Shown here: positions 1,216 through 40,909 of the stretch, piece by piece
How positions within the stretch are numbered: position 1 is the stretch's first letter
Layout of the letters: the number at the start of each line of letters is the position of its first letter
From: an uncultured Bacillales bacterium
Lineage (GTDB): Bacteria; Bacillota_I; Bacilli_A; RF39; UBA660
Length of the DNA: 64,000 nt
Assembly: GCA_947564265.1 (NCBI GenBank)
Contig: CANOBK010000005.1
Span: 66,548 to 130,547, forward strand
Reading direction: 5' to 3'
Program-made: the position numbers and the translations under genes
Notes under the pieces: generated by a model
The model's database searches: none
What the model saw: only the letters and a program-made list of their open reading frames with translations
What the model was told of the DNA's origin: nothing

Positions 1216-1261
1216 AAAAACCCTCTCTTATTTTTAATTTTTATATTTAATTTTTCATTTT

Positions 1262-1909
1262 TTACTGACTTTGATCTGTAAGTACTAAATTTCGTATCTT
1301 TTGGTTATAAATATCATATCTCCTAACTAAATCCTGTTGTTCTTCTATGGTTGCATCTCTCATTAAATCTTTATAAAATCCACAGTTTCCGAAGACTTCT
1401 GGACATCCTCCACAGCGAACGCATTGAGGAACATTGGACCAAGCAATCACCTCACTATATTTTCTAATTTCTTCAATCACCGCCTCCCAATATTTTCTAG
1501 TGGTAGGATCTGCACACATACAAAGTCTTTTTTCAGAAATGTTGATAAGGCCTTGCAGATTTGCATCCATTTCAACAGGGATAGGATTCATTTGACTTCG
1601 CTCTTCCCTTGTTACATTCGTTCGATCCTCTCTTTCTGTTGCGACAAATTTTTCACACCCTTCGTGATGCCTTACAAAGTGAGTACTAATTGCATAAGGG
1701 ATGTTTTCCCATTTCCAACTAGTAATTCCTCTTCGTATGGGAGAATGTCTACAAATCAAGAGTTTCTTTTTCCAATCTGTATTTGGCTCTTTTCCTGCAG
1801 CTTTGTTGATGGTTGTCATGCATGCAGACTTAATTTTCATCCAATTGACATAGAAGTCTGTAATTTTTACAGTTGTATCATAATTTTTCATATTCTTCAT
1901 ATTCATCAT
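1262..1909 (-). CDS. ThyX-like (flavin-dependent thymidylate synthase fold) protein with divergent motif
   Basis: Region HSP..I.S.KWENIPYAISTHFVRHHEG resembles the ThyX core around the RHR motif, but the motif reads RHH and the catalytic Ser positions are replaced; sits next to tdk in a nucleotide cluster. Assigned from memory of ThyX sequences, not a search. Confidence 0.35.
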   Translation of the reverse strand: MMNMKNMKNYDTTVKITDFYVNWMKIKSACMTTINKAAGKEPNTDWKKKLLICRHSPIRRGITSWKWENIPYAISTHFVRHHEGCEKFVATEREDRTNVTREERSQMNPIPVEMDANLQGLINISEKRLCMCADPTTRKYWEAVIEEIRKYSEVIAWSNVPQCVRCGGCPEVFGNCGFYKDLMRDATIEEQQDLVRRYDIYNQKIRNLVLTDQSQ

Positions 1910-1911
1910 TC

Positions 1912-2469
1912 CTAATAGATTTTTTTAATTTGTTTTGTTTTGGGATCGTATTCATGAATAGAGGCATGAGTAACACCAAACCTTTCCTTGTTCATATCAA
2001 GTGGAATTCCTTCTAATTCATAATAAACAGCGTTAATGACTCCTCTATGTGTCACAATCAATGAGTAATCTTGTTCAAGAAAGACGGGAAGGTTAATTTT
2101 AATTCTTTCGTAAAATCCCTCAAGAGATTCCCCATTTGGATAAACGGTATCTATCTGAATGTTTTGAAAGAAATCACGATTTTTAGGTTCTACTTTCATT
2201 TTAAATTCTCCATTAAAGTCTCCCTTGTTCTGCTCTCTCAGTTTTTCATCATAGATGATAGGAACTGGAAATTCTTCCCCTACCATTAAAGCTGTTTCTT
2301 TGGCTCTTTCAATATCACTACTATAGATTTGTTCGAAGTGGATGGGATTGTTTTTTAAAAACTCAATTGCTCTTTTTACTTGGTTTCTTCCTTCCCAGAT
2401 TAGTTGTCCATTACTCCATCCTCCAATAAATCTTTCATCATCTAGTCCATGTCTTAAAAAATAAATCAT
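1912..2469 (-). CDS. Histidine phosphatase family protein (phosphoglycerate mutase-like)
   Basis: N-terminal LRHG motif, typical ~185 aa His-phosphatase layout; 3-nt gap to downstream ThyX-like gene. Confidence 0.7.
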   Translation of the reverse strand: MIYFLRHGLDDERFIGGWSNGQLIWEGRNQVKRAIEFLKNNPIHFEQIYSSDIERAKETALMVGEEFPVPIIYDEKLREQNKGDFNGEFKMKVEPKNRDFFQNIQIDTVYPNGESLEGFYERIKINLPVFLEQDYSLIVTHRGVINAVYYELEGIPLDMNKERFGVTHASIHEYDPKTKQIKKIY

Positions 2470-2608
2470 AAACCCTCCTAATCAAGTGTAATAAGTACAC
2501 TTATAAATTGTTAAATATAGATGAATAGTTCAACCATAATTTTATTGTGTAAAAAATACACTTATAATAGAATAAAATATGGATGAATTTCTTCATCAGT
2601 TTTTTTCA

Positions 2609-3229
2609 TTAAATTTTTTTCAAATATTGCATATTCTTTTCGGGTAAAACTACTTCCTTTAGAAAGCAATTCCCACAAAGTGGTTCGTAAGTAATATTAG
2701 CATCACTTCCATCGATGATACATTCCTCTCCACTCATCGTATAAGCTCCATTTATTTTTCTTGCATTAAATAATGCTTTTTCTCCACATTTACAAAGTGG
2801 AATAATCGGTAGCTCATTTAGTTCATCCGCAAGTTCAAAGAATCTTCGGCTCCCCTCGAATAATCTTCCTTTAAAATTCGCCCGAAGTCCAAAGCCAATG
2901 ACTTGAATATCCAGTCTTTTGGAAATAGTCCAAAGTTCTTCTACTTGCTCTTTCGTTAAAAACTGTGCTTCATCGATAATGATAGCATCCATTTCAAATA
3001 TTCGAGAAAGATTAGCATCTGATAGAAAGCTCTCGTTTTTATCAATCCATAAATCAATCTTTCTTTGTGCACCTGATCTAGAAACAATATGGTCATCCCC
3101 TTTTGTATCAATACCCGGTTTCACTACGAGTGTTCGTTGATTATTTTCTTCTAGATTATAGGCCATTGGGATTAAGATTCCACTTTTTCCTCCCTTCATA
3201 GCGCTATAAAAATAAATTAATTTTGCCAC
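2609..3229 (-). CDS. tdk: Thymidine kinase
   Basis: Walker A GGKSG, IDEAQF motif, C-terminal zinc ribbon CKCG...CGNC; length 206 aa. Confidence 0.9.
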   Translation of the reverse strand: MAKLIYFYSAMKGGKSGILIPMAYNLEENNQRTLVVKPGIDTKGDDHIVSRSGAQRKIDLWIDKNESFLSDANLSRIFEMDAIIIDEAQFLTKEQVEELWTISKRLDIQVIGFGLRANFKGRLFEGSRRFFELADELNELPIIPLCKCGEKALFNARKINGAYTMSGEECIIDGSDANITYEPLCGNCFLKEVVLPEKNMQYLKKI

Positions 3230-3238
3230 AATACCTCC

Positions 3239-3913
3239 TTAAAAAATTCTTTTTTGTTTTTTTTCTTTTCGAAAGCGATACAACTTGGCAGGTTTCTTTC
3301 CTCCAAATTTTGCGGTTTCTCCCGTGTCTTCAATTAAATCTAAGGAAAGCATCCGTTTTCGAAAATTCCTACGATCATAATTTACTCCAAGAATCGATTC
3401 ATAAACCTTTTGAATCTCTGGAAGCGTGAACTCTTTTGGAAACAGACTTTCTAGAATATCTGATTCAACGATACTTTCTTTGAGTTTTTCTAACGCATCT
3501 TGGATAATCTCTTGATGATCATAGGCAAGTGGTGGAATCTGATTAATGGCAAACCATCCTGCATTCGATGTTTTTAAAGTAGAAGTTAAAAGTTCTACTT
3601 TGAAACGATCAATGACCCCAAAATAAGAAATCCCAATCATACGCATACAAGGAGATCGATGAACTTTTCCGAAGACACTGCATTGTCTTAAGTTAGGAAT
3701 AACAAGTCCTGTTTTTTCAAGGAGCTCTCTTCTCATACCATCTTCTAAATCTTCATCATTATATAGAGCCCCACCTGGGAGTGACCACATCCCATAAAAT
3801 GGTTCATTTTTTCTCTCTACGAGTAAGATTTTTGTAATTCCATGATCGACAGTAAAGATGGCTGCCATTACATGAATCCCTTGTTTCTTATATCTCGGAT
3901 TATTGATTTCCAT
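3239..3913 (-). CDS. NUDIX hydrolase with C-terminal winged-helix domain (NrtR-like)
   Basis: Nudix box GGALYNDEDLEDGMRRELLEKTGL; ~90-aa C-terminal extension typical of NrtR-family proteins. Confidence 0.65.
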   Translation of the reverse strand: MEINNPRYKKQGIHVMAAIFTVDHGITKILLVERKNEPFYGMWSLPGGALYNDEDLEDGMRRELLEKTGLVIPNLRQCSVFGKVHRSPCMRMIGISYFGVIDRFKVELLTSTLKTSNAGWFAINQIPPLAYDHQEIIQDALEKLKESIVESDILESLFPKEFTLPEIQKVYESILGVNYDRRNFRKRMLSLDLIEDTGETAKFGGKKPAKLYRFRKEKKQKRIF

Positions 3914-4112
3914 ATCATCACCACAATTCTATTATATGTGTACCTTTTACACAAGTCAATAGTAAATTTTATAATATGACAAAATTGTAAGGAAATTCCT
4001 AGGAAAAAAAGTGGAAAAGGGTAGAAAATATGGTATACTGAATATGAATGTAAAGAATAATAGGAATAAATGTTTGTAAAAAGGATAAAACAAAATAGAA
4101 AGGGAGAGAAAC

Positions 4113-5294
4113 ATGAAAAAAACAATTATGGATTTGGATCTTGCAGGAAAGCATGTAATTATTCGTTGTGATTTTAATGTTCCACTAAAAGATGGAAAAA
4201 TTATAGATGATACTAGAATTGTAGAAAGTCTCGATACGATTCGTTATGCGATTGGACAAAGAGCAAAAATTATTTTAATGTCTCATTTAGGTAGGATTAA
4301 AGAGGAAAGCGATTTAGAAAAAAATAGTCTAACACCAGTAGCCATGTGTTTAGGAGAGTTGTTGAGACTTCCAATTAAATTTATTAATCGAACAAGAAGT
4401 GAAAAACTAAAAGAAATTGTTGCCAATATGAAAGAAGGGGAAATCGTTCTCATTGAAAATACAAGATTTGAAGATTTGGATGGTAAAAAAGAAAGTTCCA
4501 ATGATGAAGAATTGGCTTCTTATTGGGCAAGCCTAGGAGATATTTTTATCAATGATGCTTTTGGAACGATTCATAGAGCACATGCTTCTAACGTTGGAAT
4601 CGGGAGTAAATTACCGAATGCAATTGGGTTCTTAGTAGAAAAAGAACTTTCTGCCTTAAGCAGATTAGATAATCCAGAAAGGCCTTATGTTGTCATTTTG
4701 GGAGGATCCAAAGTATCTGATAAAATCGGAGTCATTCAAAATTTAGTAGAAAAAGCCGATAAGATTATCATAGGTGGGGGAATGGCATTTACTTTCTTAA
4801 AAGCGGCCGGATATAATATTGGTAACTCTATTTTAGATAATGAAAACATTAATTTTTGTAAAGAAATATTAGAAAAATATCAGAGTAAAATTATTCTTCC
4901 AGTCGATGTAAATGCAGCTATCGATACAAAAGAAAGTACACCGAGTCGGATTGTAAAAGTAGGAGATTTACAATCTAACGAAATGGGATTAGACATTGGG
5001 ACCGAGACCATTAATCTATTTGCGAAGCATCTAATGAATGCCAAAACGGTAGTATGGAATGGACCTCTTGGTATGTATGAAATTCCGAAATATAGTATTG
5101 GAACAGAACAGATACTAAGATGTGTAACAGAATACAAAATTGAAACCATTCTTGGTGGTGGAGACATTGTCGCTGCCTCTAAAAAATTAGGTTACAAGGA
5201 TAAAGTAAGTCATGCATCTACAGGTGGGGGAGCAACACTTGAATATTTAGAAGGAAAAGAATTGCCAGGATTAAAAGTAATCAACGAAAAATAA
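4113..5294 (+). CDS. pgk: Phosphoglycerate kinase
   Basis: 393 aa, conserved PGK N-terminus (RCDFNVP) and C-terminal GGGA region; RBS GGGAGAG upstream. Confidence 0.95.
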   Translation: MKKTIMDLDLAGKHVIIRCDFNVPLKDGKIIDDTRIVESLDTIRYAIGQRAKIILMSHLGRIKEESDLEKNSLTPVAMCLGELLRLPIKFINRTRSEKLKEIVANMKEGEIVLIENTRFEDLDGKKESSNDEELASYWASLGDIFINDAFGTIHRAHASNVGIGSKLPNAIGFLVEKELSALSRLDNPERPYVVILGGSKVSDKIGVIQNLVEKADKIIIGGGMAFTFLKAAGYNIGNSILDNENINFCKEILEKYQSKIILPVDVNAAIDTKESTPSRIVKVGDLQSNEMGLDIGTETINLFAKHLMNAKTVVWNGPLGMYEIPKYSIGTEQILRCVTEYKIETILGGGDIVAASKKLGYKDKVSHASTGGGATLEYLEGKELPGLKVINEK

Positions 5295-5313: not shown

Positions 5314-6330
5314 ATGAAAGGTGTAAAGAAAAACAGTATTATTTTATTAGCAATTACCATTATAATTGTTGCCTTTGTCTTAAAAGATGACTTTAATGCC
5401 ATTATGGAAGCACTATTGAAAGCAAATCTTCTTATCTTAGTCCTTGCATTTCTTTGTCAGATAGTAGCGATCATGTTTGAGGCACTCGCCTATAAAAAGG
5501 TAGTAGATAGCTATACTGATCATTATTCTTATAAAAGTGCTTTAAAAATGCAATTTATTACAAAATTTTTTAATGGAATTACACCATTTTCTACTGGTGG
5601 ACAACCGATGCAAATTTATCTTCTTAAAAAAGATGGTTTCCGATTGACAAAAGCAACCAATATTATTATGCAAAACTTCATTCTATATCAAGCAGCCTTA
5701 GTAACTTATGGAATTGTTGCTTTAGTCATCAATTGGCAGTGGAATCTATTTCCGGAAGTAACGTTACTAAAAAATTTGATCGTACTAGGATTTTTTATGA
5801 ATACCTTAGTTATGTTGGGACTAATAGTGGTCAGTTTTAGTAGTAAGTTTAATCACGTAATGATTGATAAGATTATTGCCCTTCTTGCCAAATTAAAAAT
5901 TGTAAAAGATAAAGAAAAGAAACAGGCAGAATGGAGTGAGAGAGTAGATGATTTTCATCAAGGAACTACCTATTTAAAACAACATAAAAGGTTGTGCTTT
6001 CAGTCCTATCTTTATAATTTAATCTATTTAACACTAAACTATTTAATGCCATACTTCGTAATAGCGTCTCTCTTAGGATTTAATAATCCAGTAACGCCAG
6101 TAGGTGCCATTTGTTCATCCGCATATATCTTGATTATTGGTTCCTTTGTACCAATCCCAGGTGCTTCAGGAGGAATTGAATATGGATATTTAAGATTCTT
6201 TGGATCTTTTATAAAAGGAAGTATTCTAAAAGCCTCTCTTCTAATTTGGAGATTTATTTCATATTATTTCTTAATGATCGTAGGTGCGGTCACATTTAAT
6301 ATCAAGGGAAGTGACAAGAAATGCGAATAG
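5314..6330 (+). CDS. Flippase-like / lysylphosphatidylglycerol-synthase TM-region (UPF0104) family membrane protein
   Basis: Multi-pass membrane protein with GGQPMQIYLLKK motif typical of UPF0104; immediately followed by and overlapping a GT4 glycosyltransferase. Confidence 0.6.
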   Translation: MKGVKKNSIILLAITIIIVAFVLKDDFNAIMEALLKANLLILVLAFLCQIVAIMFEALAYKKVVDSYTDHYSYKSALKMQFITKFFNGITPFSTGGQPMQIYLLKKDGFRLTKATNIIMQNFILYQAALVTYGIVALVINWQWNLFPEVTLLKNLIVLGFFMNTLVMLGLIVVSFSSKFNHVMIDKIIALLAKLKIVKDKEKKQAEWSERVDDFHQGTTYLKQHKRLCFQSYLYNLIYLTLNYLMPYFVIASLLGFNNPVTPVGAICSSAYILIIGSFVPIPGASGGIEYGYLRFFGSFIKGSILKASLLIWRFISYYFLMIVGAVTFNIKGSDKKCE

Positions 6331-29685: not shown

Positions 29686-30030
29686 ATGGCATATAGAAAA
29701 TTAGGTCGTGATAATAAACATAGAAGAAGCTTACTTGCTAACCAAGTAAAAGATGTCATTATGCACGAGAAAATCACTACAACAGAAACAAGAGCAAAAG
29801 AAGTTCGTAAATTTGTTGATAAGATGATTACTTATGGAAAAAATGGAAGTTTAGTGTCTAGAAGAAAAGCGTTAGCATTCCTTCAAAATGATACAGAGGC
29901 TGTCAAAAAAGTATTTGATGACTTAGCAAAAAGATATGAAAACCGTAATGGTGGATATACAAGAATCTTAAAGATGACTGAAAGACGTGGAGATGATGCG
30001 TTAATGGTTATCTTAGAACTAGTAAAATAA
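29686..30030 (+). CDS. rplQ: 50S ribosomal protein L17
   Basis: Conserved sequence; last gene of the alpha operon. Confidence 0.96.
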
Positions 30031-30092
30031 AAGGGTAGCCAATCACTACTCTTTTTTTGCCACCAAGAAGTTAGAAAGATGGAGGAAAGAGA

Positions 30093-30596
30093 ATGACAAA
30101 AAGAAAAAATGAAACAGAATTGGCCATTGCCGATTTAATTGGAAATTACCTGAAAGAAGAGAAACGAAATATTGTTGGATTCTATATGGTTCCCTATACA
30201 GTAGCTAAACATAGGAAAATTGAGTTGGTAGTGGTGACAGCGAAACCTAGTGAAAGTCTTTGTCCACAACCTGATCAAAGAGTAGATTGCTATGTGGTTG
30301 TATCTAGTATCCATTCTTTAGAGGAATATAAGGAAGAGGAAAATAGCATCGTAATGGATTCATATCAACTAGGAAATAAAAAACTATTAAAGGACTTTAG
30401 AAATGGAATTATCCTTTACGATCCAAAACAAATACTTCTTAAGAGGCAAGAATCTCTGTTAACAAATTCAAAATTGGTAGAACATTATAATACCTTTCCA
30501 GTTCCTGTTGATTTTCAGAACACGGTTACCTCTAAAGTCAATCATGATCTAGAAAGAGCTGAAAAAAGAAAAAACAAAAGAAAAAAATTATCATAA
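30093..30596 (+). CDS. Hypothetical protein
   Basis: 167 aa, basic C-terminus; no family recognised; inserted between rplQ and the ecf genes. Confidence 0.4.
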   Translation: MTKRKNETELAIADLIGNYLKEEKRNIVGFYMVPYTVAKHRKIELVVVTAKPSESLCPQPDQRVDCYVVVSSIHSLEEYKEEENSIVMDSYQLGNKKLLKDFRNGIILYDPKQILLKRQESLLTNSKLVEHYNTFPVPVDFQNTVTSKVNHDLERAEKRKNKRKKLS

Positions 30597-30741
30597 AATA
30601 TTCAAAATAATTGTATTATTATACACTAATAAGTGCAAAATTATGATATTATAATACAAATAAATGAATAAATAGAAGAAAATGCCATAGAATTCTTTGT
30701 TGAAAAAATGTGTCATGGTATAATAAATATAGGTGATTTAT

Positions 30742-31494
30742 ATGAAAGCGTTAGTTACAGGAGCGTCTTCTGGAATTGGATTAGAGATAGCAAAATATCT
30801 AGATGAACTCGGTTATCACTTAATTCTAGTCGCTAGGGATAAAGACAAACTAGAAGAACTTGCCACCACATTAAAACATAAGCCTAAAATTATAGTGATG
30901 GACTTGTTAGTAGAAAGTAATGTAAAATCTCTCTATGTCCTAACGAAAAATGAAGAGATTGATATTTTAGTAAACAATGCGGGATTTGGAGATTTCGGAA
31001 AATTTACAGAAACTGATATCAGTAAAGAATTAGAAATGATTGATTTAAATATCAAAGCACTTCATATGTTAACAAAAATGTTCTTAAAAGAAATGGTAAA
31101 GAAAGACGATGGATATATCTTAAACGTTGCTTCTTCTGCTGCTTTTCAACCAGGACCTTTAATGGCAACCTATTACAGTACAAAAGCTTATGTGTTACAC
31201 TTAACGGAAGCTATCTGGTATGAATTAAAGAAACAAAAGTCTAAAGTTCATATTTCTTGTCTATGTCCAGGACCAGTAGATACTAATTTCAATCGTGTCG
31301 CAGGAGTAAGGTTCTCCGTAAAACCGTTATCCTCTGAAAAGGTGGCTCGCTATGCAGTGGATAAAATGTTTAAAAAGAAATTAGTAATCATTCCAGGGTT
31401 TAAAATGAAATGTGCGAAATTCTTTGGAAGATTCCTATCAGATAAAAAACTAATGTCTATTACATATAAAATTCAAAAGAAGAAAAAGGGATAG
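30742..31494 (+). CDS. SDR family short-chain dehydrogenase/reductase
   Basis: TGASSGIG Rossmann motif, NNAG, and S...Y..xK catalytic triad (SSAAF...YYSTKAY); start set at MKALVTG. Confidence 0.85.
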   Translation: MKALVTGASSGIGLEIAKYLDELGYHLILVARDKDKLEELATTLKHKPKIIVMDLLVESNVKSLYVLTKNEEIDILVNNAGFGDFGKFTETDISKELEMIDLNIKALHMLTKMFLKEMVKKDDGYILNVASSAAFQPGPLMATYYSTKAYVLHLTEAIWYELKKQKSKVHISCLCPGPVDTNFNRVAGVRFSVKPLSSEKVARYAVDKMFKKKLVIIPGFKMKCAKFFGRFLSDKKLMSITYKIQKKKKG

Positions 31495-31563
31495 AAATAA
31501 CTTTTTCTTCCTTTTTTTAACATTTTATGATATAATATAGCCGTTTGAAAGGAAAGGAAATTT

Positions 31564-32136
31564 ATGAGTAGATATGGAAGTAATGATTACTTTTGGTTAA
31601 AAATGGGAGCAGGAGCAGTTACAATTATCTTATTCGGAGCTCTTTATAGTTGCTCAGCAAAAAAAGAAAGGGAATTATCAACAGATATTGGGTATAATTC
31701 AAGCAATTATTATTTTGATGAAGAATCAGGTGAATATAAGGACGCTTGGACAGGGGAGTCCCTACCAGAAAATCCATTTAAAGATACTGCATATAAGATT
31801 AACTATATTGATGAATGGACAGTGGATTATTCAAAATATCAAGATGTAGAATATGAGCCATTTACGCACACTTTATGCGTTAAAACAAAGGGAACTTTAG
31901 CATATGATCAACTAATTTCAGTAGATGTACCTGAGGGATATCAATTGGACTATTGTATTCCAATGGAAAACTCAAATGGTTCATATGGTGATATTTACGG
32001 ATATGTCGTTTTAAAATTTACAAATACAGAAAAAGTTGTAGTACGTGAGTATTATGATACATCAATAGGTAAATACATCAATACTAACTTTGGAACAGTA
32101 GTAGAAAAAGAAAAACAAAAAACAATAGAACAGTAA
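31564..32136 (+). CDS. Membrane-anchored hypothetical protein, tandem paralogue A
   Basis: N-terminal TM helix; shares YEPFTH...VREYYDT...NFGTV.EKEK with the next gene. Confidence 0.5.
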   Translation: MSRYGSNDYFWLKMGAGAVTIILFGALYSCSAKKERELSTDIGYNSSNYYFDEESGEYKDAWTGESLPENPFKDTAYKINYIDEWTVDYSKYQDVEYEPFTHTLCVKTKGTLAYDQLISVDVPEGYQLDYCIPMENSNGSYGDIYGYVVLKFTNTEKVVVREYYDTSIGKYINTNFGTVVEKEKQKTIEQ

Positions 32137-32165
32137 AAGGAATACTCAAAGAAAAAATATAAAAT

Positions 32166-32744
32166 ATGAGAAGGAGAAAATTTATGGGAAAGTATAGTAA
32201 TGATTACTCTAGAAAAAGAGCGATAAGTGCAGGATTAACACTTTTATTATTAGGAATCATTTACTCAACATCTAGAAATGCTGAATTATCAACAGATTTG
32301 GAAGAAGAGTTAGGAAAAGCATATTCCCTTGATACAGGACTAGACCACAATCAATTTAACTTGAATAATGAAATGTTACCAAATGATTCTCAAATGGGTA
32401 TTATAGATACGAACCAATCTACTATTGATTACTCTAATTATCGAGATGTAGTATATGAACCATTTACTCACAAAGTTTATATAAAAGTAGAAGGATCTCT
32501 AGCCTTTGATTCTATGAACGTAAACGCACCAGATGGATATCAGGCAGATTATTCTATCCAAATGGAAGATTCGAATAGTGGAAATCGATACGTTTACGGA
32601 TGTGCTAGTATAGAGTATACGAATACAGAAAGGGTTTTAGTACGTGAGTATTATGATACAGAAACTAAAACTTATGTATATGTTAACTTTGGAACTGTAA
32701 TGGAGAAAGAAAAAACAAAAAAATTGCACGATAAAAAGAATTAA
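32166..32744 (+). CDS. Membrane-anchored hypothetical protein, tandem paralogue B
   Basis: Same motif set as 31564-32136. Confidence 0.5.
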   Translation: MRRRKFMGKYSNDYSRKRAISAGLTLLLLGIIYSTSRNAELSTDLEEELGKAYSLDTGLDHNQFNLNNEMLPNDSQMGIIDTNQSTIDYSNYRDVVYEPFTHKVYIKVEGSLAFDSMNVNAPDGYQADYSIQMEDSNSGNRYVYGCASIEYTNTERVLVREYYDTETKTYVYVNFGTVMEKEKTKKLHDKKN

Positions 32745-32823
32745 AAGAGAAGGCGGAACCACTAATTTCTATTGAAATCTGTTTCGTGTTCTAGTATAAT
32801 AGTAAGCTACAATGGGGTGGACT

Positions 32824-33633
32824 ATGGAAAAAGCATTGGAAATTAACAATTTACAATTTAGTTATCCAGGAAAAGAAGTATTTCGTGGTCTTTCATTGAC
32901 GGTAGAAGAAGGAACATTCACAACCTTTATTGGAAATAACCAAAGTGGAAAAACAACCTTAATTAAATTAATCTGTGGACTCCTTGATGGACAAAAATCA
33001 ATCGTCGCTGGATACGCTTATGTGAATAATCAGAGAATTCATGACAATTCTCGCTTTTTTGGTGTTGTTTTTTCCGATGTAGATGGAAAATTCTTATTTG
33101 ATAATGTTTATAAAGAAATGGCCTTCCCATTAGAAAATCTAAATATTCCCGTTGATCAAATAGAAAACAAAATCATTGAAATCGCAAAAGAATTTGGAAT
33201 TACAGAAATGTTAGATAAAAAAATAGAAGACTTAACAACTTCAGAAAAACAAGAACTTCTAATTGCTATTTCCTTACTGCATGACCCAAAAGTACTATTA
33301 CTAGATAACGCTTTTTCTATGATGAATCAAAAATCAAAAGAAAAAATATTAGAAATTTTAAAAGCTAGAATCAAAAAAGATCATTTAACTGTAATTTTAA
33401 CGACGATGAATTTAGAAGAAATTCTTGATTCAGACTATACTTATGTTTTAAATAACGGAAATATTGTGATGGAAGGTGCTCCTCTTAAGATTCTAAAAGA
33501 AGAACGTCTTCTAAATCAAGTAGGATTAGAATTACCCTTTATGATTGATTTATCCCTAAAACTAGAATTTTATGATTTAATTACTGGCGTAATCACAGAT
33601 ATGGATCGGATGGTGGATACGTTATGGAAATAA
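32824..33633 (+). CDS. ecfA: ECF-transporter ATPase EcfA1-like ABC protein with degenerate catalytic motifs
   Basis: Conserved position (rplQ...ecfA-ecfA'-ecfT-truA). Walker A GNNQSGKTT is intact, Walker B reads LLLDNAF (catalytic Glu replaced by Asn), signature reads LTTSEKQ, and the H-loop His is replaced. Confidence 0.6.
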   Translation: MEKALEINNLQFSYPGKEVFRGLSLTVEEGTFTTFIGNNQSGKTTLIKLICGLLDGQKSIVAGYAYVNNQRIHDNSRFFGVVFSDVDGKFLFDNVYKEMAFPLENLNIPVDQIENKIIEIAKEFGITEMLDKKIEDLTTSEKQELLIAISLLHDPKVLLLDNAFSMMNQKSKEKILEILKARIKKDHLTVILTTMNLEEILDSDYTYVLNNGNIVMEGAPLKILKEERLLNQVGLELPFMIDLSLKLEFYDLITGVITDMDRMVDTLWK

Positions 33634-34433
33634 TTTTAAAAAATGTAGGATATCATTATAAAAATAAAAAATATCTAGAAAAAATCAATCTAAAAATTCG
33701 TTCGAATGTAATTACAGGAATCACGGGGGATAACAAAACACTTTTAGTAGAATTAATCGATGCGTTAACGATGGCAAGTTATGGAGAAATTAAAGTTGGA
33801 GGATTACAAATTAATCGTGAGAACTTGATGAATGTAAGAAAAACAGTCTGCATGATTCAGCAAAAACCAATGGATCAATTTTTTACTACGAATGTCAAAG
33901 AAGAAATGGAATTTCTAATTGGAAGATTAGACTATAAAAATAAGAATATTCATAAGAAGATGAGAGATTCTCTACTAATTGTTGGACTAAACGAATCTTA
34001 CTTAGAAAAAGAAATTTATCAATTATCTTCTGGGGAACAAAAATTAATTCAAGTTGCCATTAGTCTACTATATAACCCAAAAGTCATCATTTTTGATGAA
34101 CCATTCGTCGAATTAGACTACACGAATAAGAAAAAAATGATTCGCTTAATTAGGATGTTAAAAGATCGATATCATAAGACTGTAATTATTACAAGTAACG
34201 ATAGTGATTTACTTTATATGTTAACAGACGATTTGGTCATTCTAAAGGGAAATCGTATTTTGGCAGCAGATCAAACAGAGAAAATCTATCAAGATATTGA
34301 TTTCTTAAACCATAATCATGTGGAGGTTCCTCATTTAGCTTTATTCACTGATAAGGCGAGAAAGAAGAATGTGAAATTATCTTATCATAAAGATATCCGT
34401 GATTTAATAAAGGATGTGTATAAACATGTTTAA
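33624..34433 (+). CDS. ecfA2: ECF-transporter ATPase EcfA2-like ABC protein with degenerate Walker A
   Basis: Walker A GITGDNKT lacks the invariant Gly; signature LSSGEQ; Walker B IIFDEP intact; H-loop His replaced by Asn. Confidence 0.55.
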   Translation: MEIILKNVGYHYKNKKYLEKINLKIRSNVITGITGDNKTLLVELIDALTMASYGEIKVGGLQINRENLMNVRKTVCMIQQKPMDQFFTTNVKEEMEFLIGRLDYKNKNIHKKMRDSLLIVGLNESYLEKEIYQLSSGEQKLIQVAISLLYNPKVIIFDEPFVELDYTNKKKMIRLIRMLKDRYHKTVIITSNDSDLLYMLTDDLVILKGNRILAADQTEKIYQDIDFLNHNHVEVPHLALFTDKARKKNVKLSYHKDIRDLIKDVYKHV

Positions 34434-35082
34434 GAGTAATTCAATTGTTTATGACATAAATATCATTTGTAAGGTAATCTGCGCTTTATTCATGTTATTA
34501 TCTATTATTTTGTTAAAGTTACCTTCCGTTTTAGTATTTCTTGGAATCTTCTTTTTAGGAATTGGCCTAGAATTTAGAAAGATTTCTATTTTAAGTATAA
34601 TTGGAATTCTGTTCTCTATTTTGGCAACCTTCTATCACTCCATCTTTTGGCTTCCTAAAATGATTCTATTTATTACATATTTATGCCTATTGAAGAAGAT
34701 TACGAAAGCTCCAGAACTAAGATACGTATTAGAAGTAACTCTTTATAAATTCCAAAGTAAGAAGGTAACATTCCGTATTTTATACATGATTTATTTTTTC
34801 AAGCAGTTAAGAAAAAATATGAGAATTTTAGATAGATTACGAGATGAGTATGGAATGGCTAGAGACTTCTTCTACTTAAGGTTTACGTTTAAAAAGGCAT
34901 GGAAAAAAACAAAGTACGAGATGAAAGACTTAATTACGATGAATGATTTAAGATTCTATAATTATTCGAAAGATAGAACTTATACAGAAAAGCCAAAATG
35001 GGAAAAATGGGATACAAAATATCTACTTGTGCACATGCTTATCTTAATTGTATTCTATGTTTTTGGGAGAAATATATGGTAA
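34414..35082 (+). CDS. ecfT: ECF transporter T-component-like membrane protein (divergent, short)
   Basis: Polytopic membrane protein at the expected ecfT position; only 222 aa and lacks obvious Ala-Arg-Gly motifs. Confidence 0.35.
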   Translation: MCINMFKSNSIVYDINIICKVICALFMLLSIILLKLPSVLVFLGIFFLGIGLEFRKISILSIIGILFSILATFYHSIFWLPKMILFITYLCLLKKITKAPELRYVLEVTLYKFQSKKVTFRILYMIYFFKQLRKNMRILDRLRDEYGMARDFFYLRFTFKKAWKKTKYEMKDLITMNDLRFYNYSKDRTYTEKPKWEKWDTKYLLVHMLILIVFYVFGRNIW

Positions 35083-35813
35083 GGTATAAGATAACATTTT
35101 CCTATGATGGGAGTAATTTTCATGGATATCAGATTCAACCAAAACTAAGAACGATTCAAGGAGAACTAGAAAGAGCGGTTAGTTATCTCAATCAACAAAC
35201 TGAAACTTCTGTTCAATCATCTGGGAGAACAGATGGGGGTGTCCATGCCTTAGCACAAGTAGCCCATTTTGATCTTAATATTGAAATCCCAGAATACAAA
35301 ATCAAACAAGGATTAAATACTCTTTTACCGAATGATATTCATATTATCTCAGTAAAGAAAGTAAGTGAGAAGTTCCATGCCAGGTTTTCATCAAAAAAGA
35401 AGGAATACATCTATAAAATAAATTTAGGAGAATATAACCCTACCTTGAGAAATTATGAATATCAGTATGGAAAAGAATTAGATATTTCAAAAATGGTAGA
35501 AGCAATTCATTCTTTTGAGGGAACTCATGATTTTACTTCGTTTGTCTCGAGTGAAGATATGAGAGAAGATAAAGTAAGAACTATCTATAAAACTTCTATC
35601 AAAAGAAATAAAGATATTTTAACTATTTCATTTCAAGCAGATGGATTTATGAAATATCAAGTAAGAAATATGGTAGGAATATTAATAGAAATTGGAAATG
35701 GTAAAAAAGAGGTTCAAGATGTAGAAAGAATATTAAATCTAAAAAATCGAAAAACTTCAATAAAAATAGCGCCCGCAGAAGGTCTTTATTTAAAAAAGGT
35801 GTGGTATAAATGA
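35076..35813 (+). CDS. truA: tRNA pseudouridine(38-40) synthase
   Basis: Start at MVRYKITFSYDGSNFHGYQ; conserved TruA motifs (GRTDGGVHA). Confidence 0.93.
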   Translation: MVRYKITFSYDGSNFHGYQIQPKLRTIQGELERAVSYLNQQTETSVQSSGRTDGGVHALAQVAHFDLNIEIPEYKIKQGLNTLLPNDIHIISVKKVSEKFHARFSSKKKEYIYKINLGEYNPTLRNYEYQYGKELDISKMVEAIHSFEGTHDFTSFVSSEDMREDKVRTIYKTSIKRNKDILTISFQADGFMKYQVRNMVGILIEIGNGKKEVQDVERILNLKNRKTSIKIAPAEGLYLKKVWYK

Positions 35814-36598
35814 GTGAAGTTAGAAAAAAATTAGAAACTTTCGGGAATACAGTGATTTATATCCGTTATGAAGAATTTAAGAATGTTCCAATAGATATTT
35901 ATATAGATAACTATACACAAATATTTAATTTTGGAATGAAAATCATATCTTATATGAGGGAACAAGAACATGAGAATTGGGATGTATGGTATATTGATGA
36001 ATGGTTCATTCTAAGAAAATTATTAGAAGAACTCTTGAAAACAGGAGAAGCTACTGTAAAACTTTTTCAGGAAAGATTGTTTTTGGGAAGAAATATTGAT
36101 AAACAGAAAATTAAGGAACTTACTAGTATAACAACTCAATTAGAGGGAGTAATTCAAAAAATTCCTTATGTAAAAAAAGCAAAGGAAAATATAGAAACAA
36201 TTGATGATTGGGTCAAATCGTTAAGAATTTATCAATTGGCTTCTCCCCTCTCCTTAGAAACTGAATGTTATCAAACAAATGATGCTCTATATCAAGATAT
36301 TAGAAAAATAGTTTTAACAAAGACTTCCCCGACTTATAAAAAAATATATGCAATTCGAGTATCTAAATTACTATCTAGTTATGAAAGTCAAAGTAAATTG
36401 CCAGGTGGAATCAATTTCCTAACGGAAGAAGCAGATTGGAAAGGATTAATAGAATTAATAAAACAACCAGAGTTTAATTTCCGAATTCCAGGGGATTATA
36501 AGAAAATAATCCATGATTTAGAAATCAAGGAGAAATTTGAATTTGAAGAATGGAAAAATGATATTCAATTATTGGTGAAAGAAGGAAAGTCTAGATAA
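35810..36598 (+). CDS. Hypothetical protein, paralogue 1 of a tandem triplicated family
   Basis: Shares DDWVKSLRIYQL...ECYQT.DALYQDI.KIVL.KTSP.YKK.Y...VS.LL and ...NFR motifs with the next two genes. Confidence 0.5.
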   Translation: MSEVRKKLETFGNTVIYIRYEEFKNVPIDIYIDNYTQIFNFGMKIISYMREQEHENWDVWYIDEWFILRKLLEELLKTGEATVKLFQERLFLGRNIDKQKIKELTSITTQLEGVIQKIPYVKKAKENIETIDDWVKSLRIYQLASPLSLETECYQTNDALYQDIRKIVLTKTSPTYKKIYAIRVSKLLSSYESQSKLPGGINFLTEEADWKGLIELIKQPEFNFRIPGDYKKIIHDLEIKEKFEFEEWKNDIQLLVKEGKSR

Positions 36599-36600
36599 AA

Positions 36601-37377
36601 ATGGAACTTATCGAAAAAGTAAATAAGGAAGGAACGATATCAATGGATGAAATATATGAAAAATTAGGAAATTTAAAAAAAGAAATTTATATTGGTCGTA
36701 TTCATTGCGATAAAATAACTTATATAATCAAATTACTAGAATATGGAATAGAAACAATAGGTGATATAAAAAATCATCCTGAAGTAGGCAAAGAAGAATT
36801 AGAAATAGCAGTTGGTTTTGGAGAATCTATTCTCTATTTTGCAAAATCAGGATCATGGGGAAAAAATAACGAGCGATTAAGGAAGAAACTCAATCAATTA
36901 GTCGTTCAGTTAGAACAAGAAGTAGATTCAATCAAGGAAATGGATCTTATGAATACGATATATACAGATTTAAATGAATGGGTAGAGTCATTAAATATTT
37001 GTAGATTCAGGGATGGCCATATAAAAGAAGAACAGTATCAAACTAGTTATGATTTGTATGTAGATTTAAGGAAAGGCTTTATAGATCAAAGTATGTCACG
37101 GAAACAAGAGCTATATATTGGTAAAATCGTAGATCAATTGGATCAAGGAAGTACAAAGTTATCGGAAGAGTGTAAAATTGAAGTGTCAGATTATGAATTA
37201 TCGAAACTAATGGGAATGATAAGAGAGAATCCAAGATTTAATTATAGACTGCAACGGGATAATAGCTATAAGCTAGAAACGATCAATCAATCTATTGAAA
37301 GAGAAATGAAGTTAAGTAAAAGACAAGTGCTAGAAAAACGATTACAAAAACTGATTATTGATCATTCAGTTCAATAG
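36601..37377 (+). CDS. Hypothetical protein, paralogue 2 of a tandem triplicated family
   Basis: NEWVESLNI..., EQYQTSYDLY, SDYELSKL, NPRFNYR motifs. Confidence 0.5.
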   Translation: MELIEKVNKEGTISMDEIYEKLGNLKKEIYIGRIHCDKITYIIKLLEYGIETIGDIKNHPEVGKEELEIAVGFGESILYFAKSGSWGKNNERLRKKLNQLVVQLEQEVDSIKEMDLMNTIYTDLNEWVESLNICRFRDGHIKEEQYQTSYDLYVDLRKGFIDQSMSRKQELYIGKIVDQLDQGSTKLSEECKIEVSDYELSKLMGMIRENPRFNYRLQRDNSYKLETINQSIEREMKLSKRQVLEKRLQKLIIDHSVQ

Positions 37378-37399
37378 TATATGGAAAGGACAAATCAAA

Positions 37400-38128
37400 A
37401 TGAGTATAAAAGAAAAACAAGATAAATTAATCGATGAAATTGTGCATGTAAGAGGTGGCTATGCCTATGAGTGTAAATGGGATGATCATATCAATGCTTT
37501 AGAACGAGGAATTGAATTGGCTTCCGATACATTACATTTAATCTCAGAAGAAGATACATCTTCCAATCAAAAAATAGATGATCATGAAATTTTTGCGACA
37601 AAAATATTAATAGAAGAATTATTAAAAGTTTCAGGAATAGACCAACCACAGAAAAGTAGAAATTATAGGGTTAAAAAGGTATACGAATTATCATGTATTT
37701 TAAGAGAAAAATTAAATCAAATTCCCGATATCGTTCAAGAAGAGGAAAAAGTTACATCCATAAACAGTTGGATAAAATCCTTAAGAATATTTAAAATGAA
37801 TTCTAAGTTTATTTCTACAGAATATTATCAAAGTAGTGGGGATTTATGTACAGATATTAGCAAAATCGTATTGAAAAAGACTTCTCCATTATATCAAAAA
37901 CTTTATGTAGGAAAAGTAAGTAGTCTGTTGGATGAAGAGAATCGAAAGACAGAAGATATTTTAAAATCAGATTATGAGTTATCAGAATTAGTCCGTTTAA
38001 CCAAAGATAACCCTGATTTTAACTACAGAAAACTTTCCAGTTTAGAATGGACTTATCAAAAAGCACTCATAAATGATAGAATCGAAAGAGGATTTTACCG
38101 AAGTGGCTTAAAAATGTTGATAAAATAG
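37400..38128 (+). CDS. Hypothetical protein, paralogue 3 of a tandem triplicated family
   Basis: NSWIKSLRIF, EYYQSSGDL, KKTSPLYQKLYVGKVSSLL, SDYELSEL, NPDFNYR motifs; start uncertain (ORF opens at 37358, MSIKEKQ start at 37400 preferred). Confidence 0.5.
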   Translation: MSIKEKQDKLIDEIVHVRGGYAYECKWDDHINALERGIELASDTLHLISEEDTSSNQKIDDHEIFATKILIEELLKVSGIDQPQKSRNYRVKKVYELSCILREKLNQIPDIVQEEEKVTSINSWIKSLRIFKMNSKFISTEYYQSSGDLCTDISKIVLKKTSPLYQKLYVGKVSSLLDEENRKTEDILKSDYELSELVRLTKDNPDFNYRKLSSLEWTYQKALINDRIERGFYRSGLKMLIK

Positions 38129-38270
38129 CGGAAAAAAGACAGTTTTTAATTGACTTTGATACTATTTTATAATATAATTTTAACTGGTACATTTTATATA
38201 TTCCAAATTCTGGTTTTATGTCCTGGGAAAACATAAAATGGGAAGGGAAAAAAGTAAAAGGAGAATATAT

Positions 38271-38699
38271 ATGACAAGTTTTATGCAAAAGAAAGAAACA
38301 GTTGATCGTAAATGGTATGTAATCGATGCAAAAGATCAACCATTAGGAAGAGTTGCTGCTAAAGCTGCTCACATGTTAAGAGGAAAACATAAACCTACTT
38401 ACACACCACATATTGATTGTGGAGATTATATCATCATCGTAAATGCAAAAGAAGCAAAATTAACAGGAAACAAATTAGACAAGAAGATGTATTACAATCA
38501 CTCTATGTATCCAGGTGGACTTAGAGAGAGAACTGCTCGCGAAATGAAAGAAAAATATCCAATTGAAATGGTGGAAAGAGCTGTTAAAGGAATGCTTCCA
38601 CATAATAGATTGGGACGTCAAATGTATAAGAAATTATTTGTATATGAAGGAGAAACTCATCCACATACGGCACAAAAGCCTACTGTGATTGAGCTTTAA
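38271..38699 (+). CDS. rplM: 50S ribosomal protein L13
   Basis: Start at [20 protein letters not shown] with AAAGGAG RBS; conserved L13. Confidence 0.95.
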
Positions 38700-38714
38700 T
38701 AGGAGGATTACGAA

Positions 38715-39134
38715 ATGGCAGAGAAAAAAGCTTATACTGGTACTGGTAGAAGAAAAACTAGTGTAGCCAGAGTAAAATTAATTCCTGGAAAAGGAAAAAT
38801 TACAATCAATGGTAGAGATGTTCGTGATTACTTACCTTATGAAACTCTAATCATGGACTTAGAGCAACCATTAGTATTAACAAATACAAAAGATATGTTT
38901 GATGTAGTAGTAAATGTTCGTGGTGGTGGATTCTCAGGACAAACAGGAGCTATCCGTCACGGTATTACAAGGGCATTATTACAATATGATAGTACGACTT
39001 CAAAAGACTCTGAAAACAGCTATCGTAAGGTTTTAAAACCAGCTGGATTTATTACTCGCGATGCTCGTAAGAAAGAACGTAAGAAACCAGGTTTAAAGAA
39101 AGCACGTCGTGCACCACAGTTCTCAAAGAGATAG
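38715..39134 (+). CDS. rpsI: 30S ribosomal protein S9
   Basis: Conserved S9 with basic C-terminus ...RRAPQFSKR. Confidence 0.96.
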
Positions 39135-39163
39135 AATTACGTTTATGTTTATACCTCGAAAAC

Positions 39164-39200
39164 TCGATGTTTTCGGGGTTTTTCTTTTTTTATACAGATT
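39164..39200 (+). terminator. Rho-independent terminator of rplM-rpsI (CCTCGAAAAC-tcgat-GTTTTCGGGG plus T-run)
   Basis: Perfect stem and T-run seen in sequence. Confidence 0.8.
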
Positions 39201-39313
39201 AGAACTGTTTGAATTGGTTCGTAGGTAACTTAAGGAACATCATTTTAAAATTATAAGATTGTCATAGACAATGGTTGAAAAGTTTAGTATCATATCTATA
39301 CGGAAGTGATGCT

Positions 39314-40021
39314 ATGAAGATATATGTATATTTAGATGAAAGTGGTTCTATCCATAAAAATAGTAACACAAAGTATTTTGCCGTTGGTGGATACTTTGTA
39401 TTTGCTTCAGATAGGAATAAAGTTACATCTCGATACAAAAAAATAAATAAAAAGATGAAAGACAGTAAAAATATTTCTTTATCTAAAGAAATAAAATCTT
39501 ATGATATGACAGATTTAGAGAAAATAGAAATTTTTAATAATATCCAAGATATTGATACATTTTATGGATGTGCTAAAATCTTTGAAAAAGCAGCTATGAG
39601 AAAAGAGATTATAGAATCAAATATATTTTTTAATTACGCAGTTAAGTTGGTATTTAAAGATTGCATTATACCTCTCTTAAATCTAAATCAATTGAATGAA
39701 AATCTAGAATTTATCGTAAGCGTCGATAACAGAAATATTAGAATTGGCGACTTAAATAATTTAGAAACATATTTAAAAACTGAATTTTGTTTAGAAAATT
39801 TTGGATTTAAAATAACTTATTATGATTCTTCAACTAATTATGGAGTACAATTAGCAGACCTAGTTGTTAATACATTTTATAATTCATATAAAGATAGAAA
39901 CATTGTTAAGAAAGTATTACCTACACTGAAAGGTAAAAATTTTAGAATAAGTTTGTTTCCTGGTCATAAAATTAAGGGTAGAATTCAAAAAATTGAATAT
40001 AATAGTAATGAGAATGTTTGA
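39314..40021 (+). CDS. DUF3800 family protein
   Basis: Family-typical N-terminus MKIYVYLDESG and C-terminal QLADLV motif; ORF opens at 39275 but the conserved start is at 39314. Confidence 0.6.
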   Translation: MKIYVYLDESGSIHKNSNTKYFAVGGYFVFASDRNKVTSRYKKINKKMKDSKNISLSKEIKSYDMTDLEKIEIFNNIQDIDTFYGCAKIFEKAAMRKEIIESNIFFNYAVKLVFKDCIIPLLNLNQLNENLEFIVSVDNRNIRIGDLNNLETYLKTEFCLENFGFKITYYDSSTNYGVQLADLVVNTFYNSYKDRNIVKKVLPTLKGKNFRISLFPGHKIKGRIQKIEYNSNENV

Positions 40022-40058
40022 CATGAGAGTAATCTTATGCTAAAATATTCTTACAAGA

Positions 40059-40122
40059 CCTGAGGTAGGTAGCTAAATGCTAAGCGTATGTTAAGTACGC
40101 TGCCCCTCAGGCATTTTTATTT
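40059..40122 (+). terminator. Long imperfect hairpin (CCTGAGG...AGCGTA-N7-TACGCT...CCTCAGG) followed by an A/T-rich tract; probable terminator or small structured RNA after the DUF3800 gene
   Basis: Nested inverted repeats seen directly. Confidence 0.4.
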
Positions 40123-40236
40123 TAAAAAAAAGATAATCAAAAAAAACTAATTTGTAGGCAACAAAATTTCATTTTTCTTTTTAAATACAATCAACATAAA
40201 TTTACAAAAGACAGCATTATGTTTATGTTTCTGACT

Positions 40237-40266
40237 CGAAAACTCGGTGTTTTCGTTTTTTTTTTC
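40237..40266 (+). terminator. Second copy of the rpsI-type terminator (CGAAAAC-tcggt-GTTTTCG plus long T-run)
   Basis: About 40 nt nearly identical to 39150-39195, including the preceding TATGTTTAT. Confidence 0.7.
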
Positions 40267-40375
40267 TAGAACGGAAAAGGTTAGATACTTAAAAATATAC
40301 TTCCATTATCAATCTTGAATATTTATAGTATAATAAACTTATAAACAAATAGAAATCTATTAAGGAGTAATTACT

Positions 40376-40909
40376 ATGGCGAAAATAAGAAGGTTAAATA
40401 TCATTCTTCCGAGTATTTATTATATTTTTGGAATATTTGGATTTTACTTCCTTTTTATCATGGGCATCACTTCTGGATTTCTAGACTTAAAAAAATTATT
40501 TTTGATATTATTTGTAGTTTTACCAATCATCGTTTTGTTACTGCCAATAGTGATAAGAACAATCATGAAAATAGAGTTTTATAAATGTATCCTATTTAGT
40601 TTAATTGGAGTTGTGATTTATTTTATCATTTTCTCTATTGTTTTACTCTCTATTGGTACTTTTAGTGAGAGTAATTGGAAAAATGATAAATATATGAATC
40701 TAAGATATTTAATGATCGATGATTTAGAGTCTAAATATGACCTTATAGGGATGAATAAAGATGAAATTATGAAACTATTAGGAGAAACAAGTGGAGAAGG
40801 GGAACTATGTTATTCTACAAGTAGCTTCATGATAACTACTTACTTTTATTGTCTAAAATATGATGAAAATGATTTAATTACAGAAATCTATGAAAAGGAA
40901 GTAGATTAA
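40376..40909 (+). CDS. Hypothetical integral membrane protein
   Basis: Three to four predicted TM helices in the N-terminal 100 aa; no family recognised. Confidence 0.45.
   Translation: MAKIRRLNIILPSIYYIFGIFGFYFLFIMGITSGFLDLKKLFLILFVVLPIIVLLLPIVIRTIMKIEFYKCILFSLIGVVIYFIIFSIVLLSIGTFSESNWKNDKYMNLRYLMIDDLESKYDLIGMNKDEIMKLLGETSGEGELCYSTSSFMITTYFYCLKYDENDLITEIYEKEVD

Follow-up and report, generated by a model that had tools for sequence, protein, structure and literature searches.

A taxonomically restricted orphan protein family in tandem copies between truA and rplM of an uncultured gut Bacilli genome

Insertion of a few genes between the units of the ecf operon cluster is a described pattern and a first step of its rearrangement (PMC8046335). 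The DNA analyzed here, a 64,000-nucleotide stretch from an uncultured Bacillales bacterium (assembly GCA_947564265.1, contig CANOBK010000005.1, positions 66,548 to 130,547 of the forward strand; hereafter the window), keeps the gene order of the ancestral Bacilli ecf operon, with ecfT recognized by position only, and carries three genes inserted between truA and rplM. It differs from the ancestral arrangement in that the insert is an orphan family duplicated and diversified in place, and in that this junction has taken up cargo repeatedly in the window's clade. All three are real genes under selection and belong to an orphan family of restricted taxonomic range; the novelty lies at the level of the protein family and its fold, and no mechanism has been demonstrated. 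Coordinates are window positions except where a related locus (L-number) is named, and all features lie on the + strand unless stated.

Three further groups of known genes invite comparison. Orphan immunity-gene arrays against polymorphic toxins, such as esaG/DUF600, occur near type VII secretion loci in Staphylococcus aureus. Such arrays likewise consist of tandem diverged paralogues in variable copy number, encoding small, cytoplasmic, non-catalytic proteins that evolve fast. The window family differs from these arrays in its sequences, which are unrelated to those of known immunity families, in lying within a housekeeping operon where it is inherited almost strictly at one locus, and in having no cognate toxin or secretion gene among the immediate neighbors of the window array or of the related loci; we read the resemblance as one of evolutionary behavior only. 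The three window proteins matched no component model of a known anti-phage defense system, and their neighbors are ecf, truA, rplM and rpsI. In predicted shape, the proteins recall helical-repeat/alpha-solenoid scaffolds (designed repeats, 14-3-3, TPR e.g. sNASP, CAF40/Rcd-1), with which they share an all-alpha stack of antiparallel helices, a form typical of peptide- or protein-binding modules. The scores of that comparison are insignificant (E of at least 0.09, template modeling (TM) score 0.2–0.32, root mean square deviation 12–20 Å), and the scaffolds lack the conserved beta-hairpin of the orphan family. Finally, a narrow range, a lack of annotation and a high rate are shared with the ORFan families of metagenome-assembled genomes (MAGs) from uncultured bacteria. 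Unlike most ORFans, the window family has confident structure models, conserved synteny, ancient paralogous clades and decay remnants, and its reality and dynamics are therefore well supported. RF39-like Bacilli are abundant, uncultured gut bacteria with small genomes, and most of their lineage-specific genes are unexplored.

The three inserted genes were called as open reading frames (ORFs) encoding copy A (35810–36598, 262 amino acids, clade A of the family), copy B (36601–37377, 258 amino acids, clade B) and copy C (37400–38128, 242 amino acids, clade C). The first-pass annotation, made from the sequence of the window, had described three consecutive, tightly packed frames of one family; all three were found as same-strand ORFs, except that the third starts at 37400 and is 242 amino acids long. 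ATG 37400 is most likely the start of copy C, not TTG 37358, because GGAAAGGA lies upstream of it and all orthologues begin MS/TI.E.Q at the equivalent methionine. With this start copy C does not overlap copy B, and the overlap previously read at 37358–37377 is a product of picking the TTG. At the junctions, the TGA stop of truA and the ATG of copy A share a 4-nt overlap (ATGA), 2 nt separate copy A from copy B, and 22 nt separate copy B from copy C, which has a ribosome-binding site of its own. Packing behind truA is equally tight elsewhere, the start of the first copy overlapping the truA stop (spacing of −4 or −1 nt) in all five loci checked. At ~29% G+C about 8% of random codons are stops, and by our own arithmetic an open frame of 242–262 codons would arise with a frequency of ~1e-9 per start. 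The G+C content of the three genes is the same as that of their flanks.

Pairwise BLASTP between the window copies, run with compositional adjustment, gave E = 3e-21 for copy A against copy C (31% identity over 195 amino acids), E = 4e-21 for copy B against copy C (37% over 146 amino acids) and E = 4e-8 for copy A against copy B (24% over 138 amino acids). Since these values remain significant once composition is corrected for, the shared motifs reflect homology and not low complexity, and the three ORFs are confirmed, as judged from their sequences, as the true paralogues they had been taken for. An alignment of the three copies has 32 invariant columns, mostly in the C-terminal two-thirds. 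Some of the motifs listed earlier proved to be less widely shared: W[VI][KE]SL[RN]I and P.FN[YF]R are common to all three copies (copy A reads QPEFNFR, not NP), whereas SDYELS occurs in copies B and C only, and K.S..Y.K.Y.G[KR] is clear in copy C, degenerate at G[KR] in copy A (IR) and much weaker in copy B.

For identification of relatives, a word-indexed search of 5.8 billion proteins returned 5 relatives of copy C, and 8 when a profile was used. When 1.84 billion cluster representatives were searched exhaustively with a HMMER profile, 43 clusters were recovered at E ≤ 1e-3, 32 of them at E ≤ 1e-10, almost all being single-domain proteins of 220–265 amino acids. No name for these proteins was found in any source queried. 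The best scores of the three window proteins were 17.7 bits in Pfam (cut-off 27) and 15.6 bits in NCBIfam (cut-off 125), the best PHROGs match had E = 0.007, and PADLOC-DB 2.0 gave zero matches. When 35 family members were scanned, no Pfam, NCBIfam or PHROGs family was matched by more than three of them and none above its cut-off, and PADLOC gave five scattered single-member matches (E ~1e-3) to different Cas models; the sub-threshold scatter of these library scans comprised phiKZ_IP, DUF5680 and Cas fragments. A sequence profile search of the PDB reached E = 0.021 at best, with designed proteins only. The earlier statement that no known domain could be recognized thus holds across Pfam, NCBIfam, PHROGs, PADLOC and PDB sequence searches, none of which produced a consistent match. 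Screens of 50,697 phage records and 72,556 plasmid records by tblastn, and of IMG/VR, found no relatives, and a search of the GTDB species genomes with copy C alone gave no relative.

The distribution of the family was followed in 80 related GTDB species loci retrieved via RplM, all genomes being MAGs or metagenome contigs. The window RplM is 89–98% identical to those of MAGs labeled uncultured Bacilli, Bacillales or Tenericutes, and more distant matches (77–80%) include Clostridium sp. CAG:417 and Mycoplasma sp. CAG:611; we take these relatives to be the RF39-type order of genome-reduced gut Bacilli, and NCBI taxonomy places the named relative in Bacilli incertae sedis. Only 3 of the 80 closest GTDB species loci carry the family, which is confined to a narrow group of RF39-like MAGs from uncultured gut Bacilli. 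In this clade the slot between truA and rplM holds three copies in the window (A+B+C), in another strain, L095 (A, B and C, the last truncated by the contig end), and in L003 and L004 (A+B′+C); two copies (B+C) in L002, L005, L006 and L009; and one copy in L011, L017, L088 and L089. One copy was also seen in the short contigs L090, L091 and L094, both flanks being visible in L091 and L094 only, and L001 and L007 were too short to show both flanks of the slot. The ORFs are thus kept at the same site in related loci, and copy number, raised earlier as a point to check, does vary, relatives holding 0–3 copies.

Among members with a genomic context examined, a single one, P0045, lies outside the slot. 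P0045 is a distant but true homologue (hhalign probability 94.7%, E = 5.6e-8), found at positions 2617–3303 of L092 and 2445–3131 of L093, on a contig of 25% G+C. The gene order there is serS, a GNAT gene, a TraG/VirD4-like ATPase gene, a MerR-type gene (127 amino acids), P0045 and ftsK, and the start of P0045 overlaps the stop of the MerR-type gene. Used as a query for a wider branch of the family, P0045 proved to be a singleton cluster.

In a neighbor-joining tree the family splits into no fewer than four deep clades, A, B, B′ and C, and further clades represented by single copies; where a species has one copy, it is A-like, B′, C-like or from another clade. Every window copy can be paired with orthologues of its own from other species at 44–59% identity (53% for copy A in L003, 47–54% for copy B and 44–59% for copy C), and the three copies fall into separate deep clades. 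The first-pass annotation had suggested an old triplication. Its age is borne out by these separate orthologue groups, but the different combinations of at least four clades per species speak for several old duplications and not for one simple triplication, and the history is one of differential retention or exchange of several clades.

The family evolves much faster than its surroundings. Its orthologues are 44–59% identical to the window copies where TruA is 84–91%, RplM 97–98%, EcfA 79–88% and the EcfT-position protein 70–76% identical. Nei–Gojobori ratios of nonsynonymous to synonymous substitution rates (dN/dS) were 0.23–0.49 for the family and 0.01–0.12 for neighboring genes, with the between-species values partly saturated (dS 0.8–2.4). 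The only unsaturated pair, copy C of L005 against L009, gave dN = 0.086 and dS = 0.33, a ratio of 0.26; within the array, the window and L095 differ too little for an informative value. The family is under purifying selection, relaxed 3–6 fold relative to its neighbors, with nonsynonymous sites changing about 3–6 times faster, and the genes are therefore selected yet fast-evolving.

Intact copies are found next to decayed ones. In L008, the closest species by RplM, a C-type remnant (5437–5855) has lost ~90 codons by internal deletion, so that MSIREKQEK is joined to the middle of the gene, and is frameshifted after ...FYAGK. L012 (about 3200–3420) and L013 (about 5690–5810) retain terminal fragments of a family gene only, in flanks that are 86–96% identical at the DNA level to those of L011, whose family gene is intact. 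These loci show birth-and-death evolution, with old tandem duplications, 1–3 copies per array and repeated loss by deletion or frameshift. The genes are dispensable and turn over, with repeated gain and loss at one fixed site in a cluster that is the best conserved on the chromosome. The narrow clade, the lack of annotation and the variability of the region would also fit remnants of a mobile element or prophage, or ORFs without function. That explanation is very improbable and largely refuted: G+C matches the flanks, phage, plasmid and IMG/VR collections hold no relatives, dN/dS is clearly below 1, the structure models are confident and the frames are intact across species that are 40–55% diverged. 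No integrase-like product is encoded among the called genes beside the array, a statement to be read with the limit that no DNA repeat search was made.

Abrupt changes of identity were seen in two pairs of loci. L005 and L009 are at least 99% identical through copy B, while copy C is 83% identical at the protein level (region L005 4600–5400); dS in rplM and rpsI of this pair is 0.19–0.24. The window and L095 are 98–99% identical overall, except that the 3′ 450 bp of truA (35357–35806) are ~83% identical; identity returns to ~100% exactly at the truA/copy A junction, and copy A is 99.6% identical between the two. The switches suggest recombination breakpoints at cassette borders, or else chimeras of MAG assembly.

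Such mosaics bear on the idea of a conflict cassette array, in which immunity-type or anti-phage binders, neutralizing variable toxins or phage proteins that enter the cell, would have been diversified by duplication and swapped via homologous recombination through the truA and rplM flanks. Tandem diverged paralogues in 0–3 copies among close relatives, their repeated decay, a dN/dS 3–6 times that of the neighbors, deep clades combined differently at one fixed locus, non-catalytic cytoplasmic products and both identity switches (the copy C contrast of L005/L009 and the one at the truA/copy A junction of the window and L095) would all be expected of it. Set against this are an immediate neighborhood without a toxin, secretion or defense gene, the want of a consistent PADLOC or PHROG match among 35 members, the lack of relatives on phages, plasmids or IMG/VR contigs, a distribution that is almost strictly vertical and single-locus, and a dN/dS well below 1. 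In addition, the L005/L009 contrast is in part a recombination boundary, because dS is raised in rplM and rpsI as well, and MAG chimerism could mimic mosaics. On balance we regard a conflict function as possible but unlikely. Its most specific form is more doubtful still: a hypervariable cassette locus of a kind not recognized before, in the ribosomal-protein super-operon, would hold interchangeable, non-catalytic helical "neutralizers" of a new fold, expressed constitutively via truA coupling, swapped between strains and species by homologous recombination through the highly conserved truA/rplM flanks, and giving genome-reduced gut Bacilli specificity-dependent protection against inter-bacterial toxins or phage proteins. 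If a conflict function is correct, the family would represent a new class of immunity or defense proteins in an unusual genomic home; if not, it would still be a good target for structural genomics and for the settlement of new genes in core operons.

For structural characterization, AlphaFold2 models were made of copy B (35 sequences; predicted local distance difference test (pLDDT) 93.3, predicted TM score (pTM) 0.87) and copy C (10-sequence alignment; pLDDT 86.9, pTM 0.82). Both models agree in topology, which is all-alpha plus one beta-hairpin: four long N-terminal helices are followed by a short helix, the beta-hairpin and several helices, the last of which is long and C-terminal. The hairpin bears the W[IV]KSL.I.K motif and an invariant tyrosine. 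With the two models as queries, Foldseek found no significant match in the PDB (best E 0.09 and 0.68, TM ≤ 0.32), the nearest insignificant structures being designed helical repeats, 14-3-3, TPR and similar proteins, and no match in BFVD. The fold assignment called for earlier has therefore given confident models, and no significant Foldseek match in PDB or BFVD.

Across the family, two tyrosines and the start methionine are invariant and one isoleucine nearly so. No Asp, Glu, His, Cys, Lys or Arg is invariant in the family alignment, which argues against an enzyme. Conservation peaks at residues 121–160, the N-terminal helices showing more variation. About 31–33% of the residues are charged, the isoelectric point (pI) ranges from 5.3 to 9.3 and the grand average of hydropathy is about −0.5, and the proteins have no evident membrane segment (hydropathy, by eye) or signal peptide. 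As modeled, these are soluble, highly charged, all-alpha proteins of ~230–260 amino acids.

The conserved segment could also be read as a nucleic-acid-binding or regulatory element, the short helix and beta-hairpin forming a wing-like DNA- or RNA-binding unit that may act with a transcription factor. It forms a helix-hairpin-helix in which Lys and Arg residues are conserved (W[IV]KSL.I.K, D.RK), P0045 is translationally coupled to a MerR-family regulator, and the top PDB matches of copy C are TetR-class repressors. Those TetR matches are nevertheless insignificant (E 0.68–2.9, probability 0.07–0.13, TM 0.13–0.15), no helix-turn-helix family was matched in any library scanned, the net charge is about neutral (pI as above), and the MerR link is a single example from a singleton cluster. 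We give a nucleic-acid-binding role only a slim chance.

The meaning of the genomic position was assessed from the 55 species loci in which truA and rplM share a strand. In 23 of them the two genes are within 300 bp of each other, and in the other 32 they are separated by 400–2300 bp. The first-pass annotation had started from a contiguous ecf-truA-rplM-rpsI cluster as the usual state; the gene order is indeed kept, but truA and rplM lie more than 300 bp apart in 32 of the 55 loci of this clade. The slot ORFs of other species are mostly unrelated to each other and to the orphan family: sister species carry GNAT, CYTH, ClpX-like AAA+, class-V aminotransferase plus NTP-transferase, M29 aminopeptidase, Stealth and unannotated ORFs, some of the last being membrane-protein-like by eye. 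Unrelated cargo of this kind occupies L010 (the GNAT gene), L014, L015/L018, L024, L026/L027 and L028. The truA/rplM junction is thus a recurrent insertion (cargo) site in this order. Because sister species fill the junction with such unrelated genes, position is a poor guide to function, and placement in this operon should not be read as functional linkage. The alternative that the other slot ORFs are ultra-diverged family members was rejected: no such member was detected by hmmsearch --max, jackhmmer or hhalign, one ORF, that of L084, was marginal (hhalign probability 13%), and several of the others are known enzymes.

A functional partnership with the operon would take the form of a TruA accessory or chaperone, a cytoplasmic accessory of a divergent energy-coupling factor (ECF) module, or a factor associated with L13/S9 or the ribosome. 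In its favor is the start of the first copy, which overlaps the truA stop at each locus checked, as is the location of all but one of the members with context examined in this operon, and the EcfT-position protein is unusually divergent and without a Pfam match, so that lineage-specific accessories are conceivable. However, close relatives with TruA and RplM 84–98% identical have no family genes or only remnants, unrelated enzymes and membrane proteins are encoded in the same slot of sister species, every putative partner evolves far more slowly than the family, P0045 sits elsewhere behind its MerR-type gene, and rplM has its own promoter-like site and leader. A partnership therefore has a small chance in our view.

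We favor, with a probability of roughly 55%, the reading that these dispensable proteins are non-catalytic binders or adaptors, produced more or less in parallel with TruA, whose paralogues have diverged in specificity. The family occupies a permissive cargo slot at the 3′ end of the ecfA1-ecfA2-ecfT-truA unit, upstream of the rplM promoter-like site and leader. In line with the insertion pattern described for the cluster (PMC8046335), its position reflects a tolerant insertion site and is no evidence of a functional link to the neighbors. Transcription would come from the ecf promoter, translation of copy A would be coupled to that of truA via the overlapping stop and start codons, and copies B and C would follow after short gaps from Shine–Dalgarno sequences of their own. 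The predicted helical scaffold, a variable N-terminal four-helix region on a more conserved core of short helix, beta-hairpin and further helices, would act by stoichiometric binding of a partner, with the paralogues differing in partner specificity. The proteins would be accessory, standing outside the tRNA-modification, ECF and ribosome machineries.

Several points weigh against this reading. The term binding protein derives from the absence of catalytic residues together with the helical model. Since the overlap with the truA stop is conserved family-wide, the proteins could be genuinely tied to TruA in function, which the cargo argument would then underrate. The promoters are consensus matches, the total number of which is not above that in shuffled sequence. 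Finally, with MAGs and metagenome contigs as the source, frameshifts, deletions and mosaic patches could in part be assembly artefacts.

In the window, the end of the ribosomal-protein super-operon is followed by ecfA1, ecfA2, the ecfT position and truA, then by the three paralogues, and then by rplM and rpsI. A promoter-like site, TTGAAA-17-TATAAT (32772–32800), precedes ecfA1; it is an 11/12 consensus match only, among the two best + strand matches in 30000–40400, and probably starts the transcription unit whose last genes are the three paralogues. A second 11/12 match, the sigma-70-like site TTGACT-17-TATAAT (38150–38178), forms with the rplM leader the segment 38150–38270. This site and the ~90-nt leader are conserved near base-for-base in 17 of 17 loci, whatever lies upstream, and are also present in the short contigs L091 and L094; together they mark where the variable slot ends on the right. 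The interval from copy C to the rplM promoter-like site showed no terminator, and read-through into rplM is therefore possible. The simplest interpretation of these signals places the three genes distally in the ecf-truA unit. Co-transcription with rplM-rpsI, which had been considered probable, is thus not needed, rplM having a conserved promoter-like site of its own, and is left as a possible result of read-through. As a separate observation, the rplM leader contains a hairpin, UAUAUAUUCCA...UGGGAAAACAUA, in a region conserved in L002–L020, L025, L038, L043, L091 and L094. Comparison with Rfam gave no family match, the L13 leader included, and the element is a candidate clade-specific autoregulatory leader of L13/S9.

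The remaining housekeeping genes were assigned as follows. The ORFs of ecfA1 (32812–33633) and ecfA2 (33624–34433) have orthologues in L002–L005 that carry ABC_tran. The ORF at the ecfT position (34414–35082) encodes a membrane protein of 215–222 amino acids across the clade; a Pfam scan gave no match at E ≤ 1e-3, and the name ecfT is for this reason one of position only. Its product is the fastest-evolving of the housekeeping neighbors, with 64–76% identity among the closest relatives. The tRNA pseudouridine synthase gene truA (35076–35813) matches Pfam PseudoU_synth_1 (E = 4e-41). Downstream of the array lie the ORFs of rplM (38271–38699), whose product is 94–98% identical in the related MAGs, and rpsI (38715–39134), and a terminator-like hairpin after rpsI (39153–39179) is the only convincing terminator of the region.

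Other gene content around the operon was recorded in passing. A second tandem pair of paralogues (31564–32136 and 32166–32744) lies between a short-chain dehydrogenase gene and ecfA1; the proteins of 190 and 192 amino acids are 42% identical (BLASTP 4e-41), each has an N-terminal membrane anchor (by eye) and neither has a Pfam match. The pair is present in L095 and absent from L002, L003 and L005. In L003, a divergent pair on the minus strand upstream of ecfA1 (481–5056) encodes an 859-amino acid FtsK/SpoIIIE-domain protein and a 661-amino acid protein with a weak FHA match; it was seen in L003 and L004 only, and is reminiscent of EssC, a type VII secretion protein, in split form. Immediately downstream of the rpsI terminator in the window, 39275–40021 encodes a DUF3800 protein (E = 1.6e-15), a gene position common to the window, L001 and the species of L095. 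L002 and L005 hold other genes at this position, which in L005 include a RelB/ParE-type toxin-antitoxin pair.

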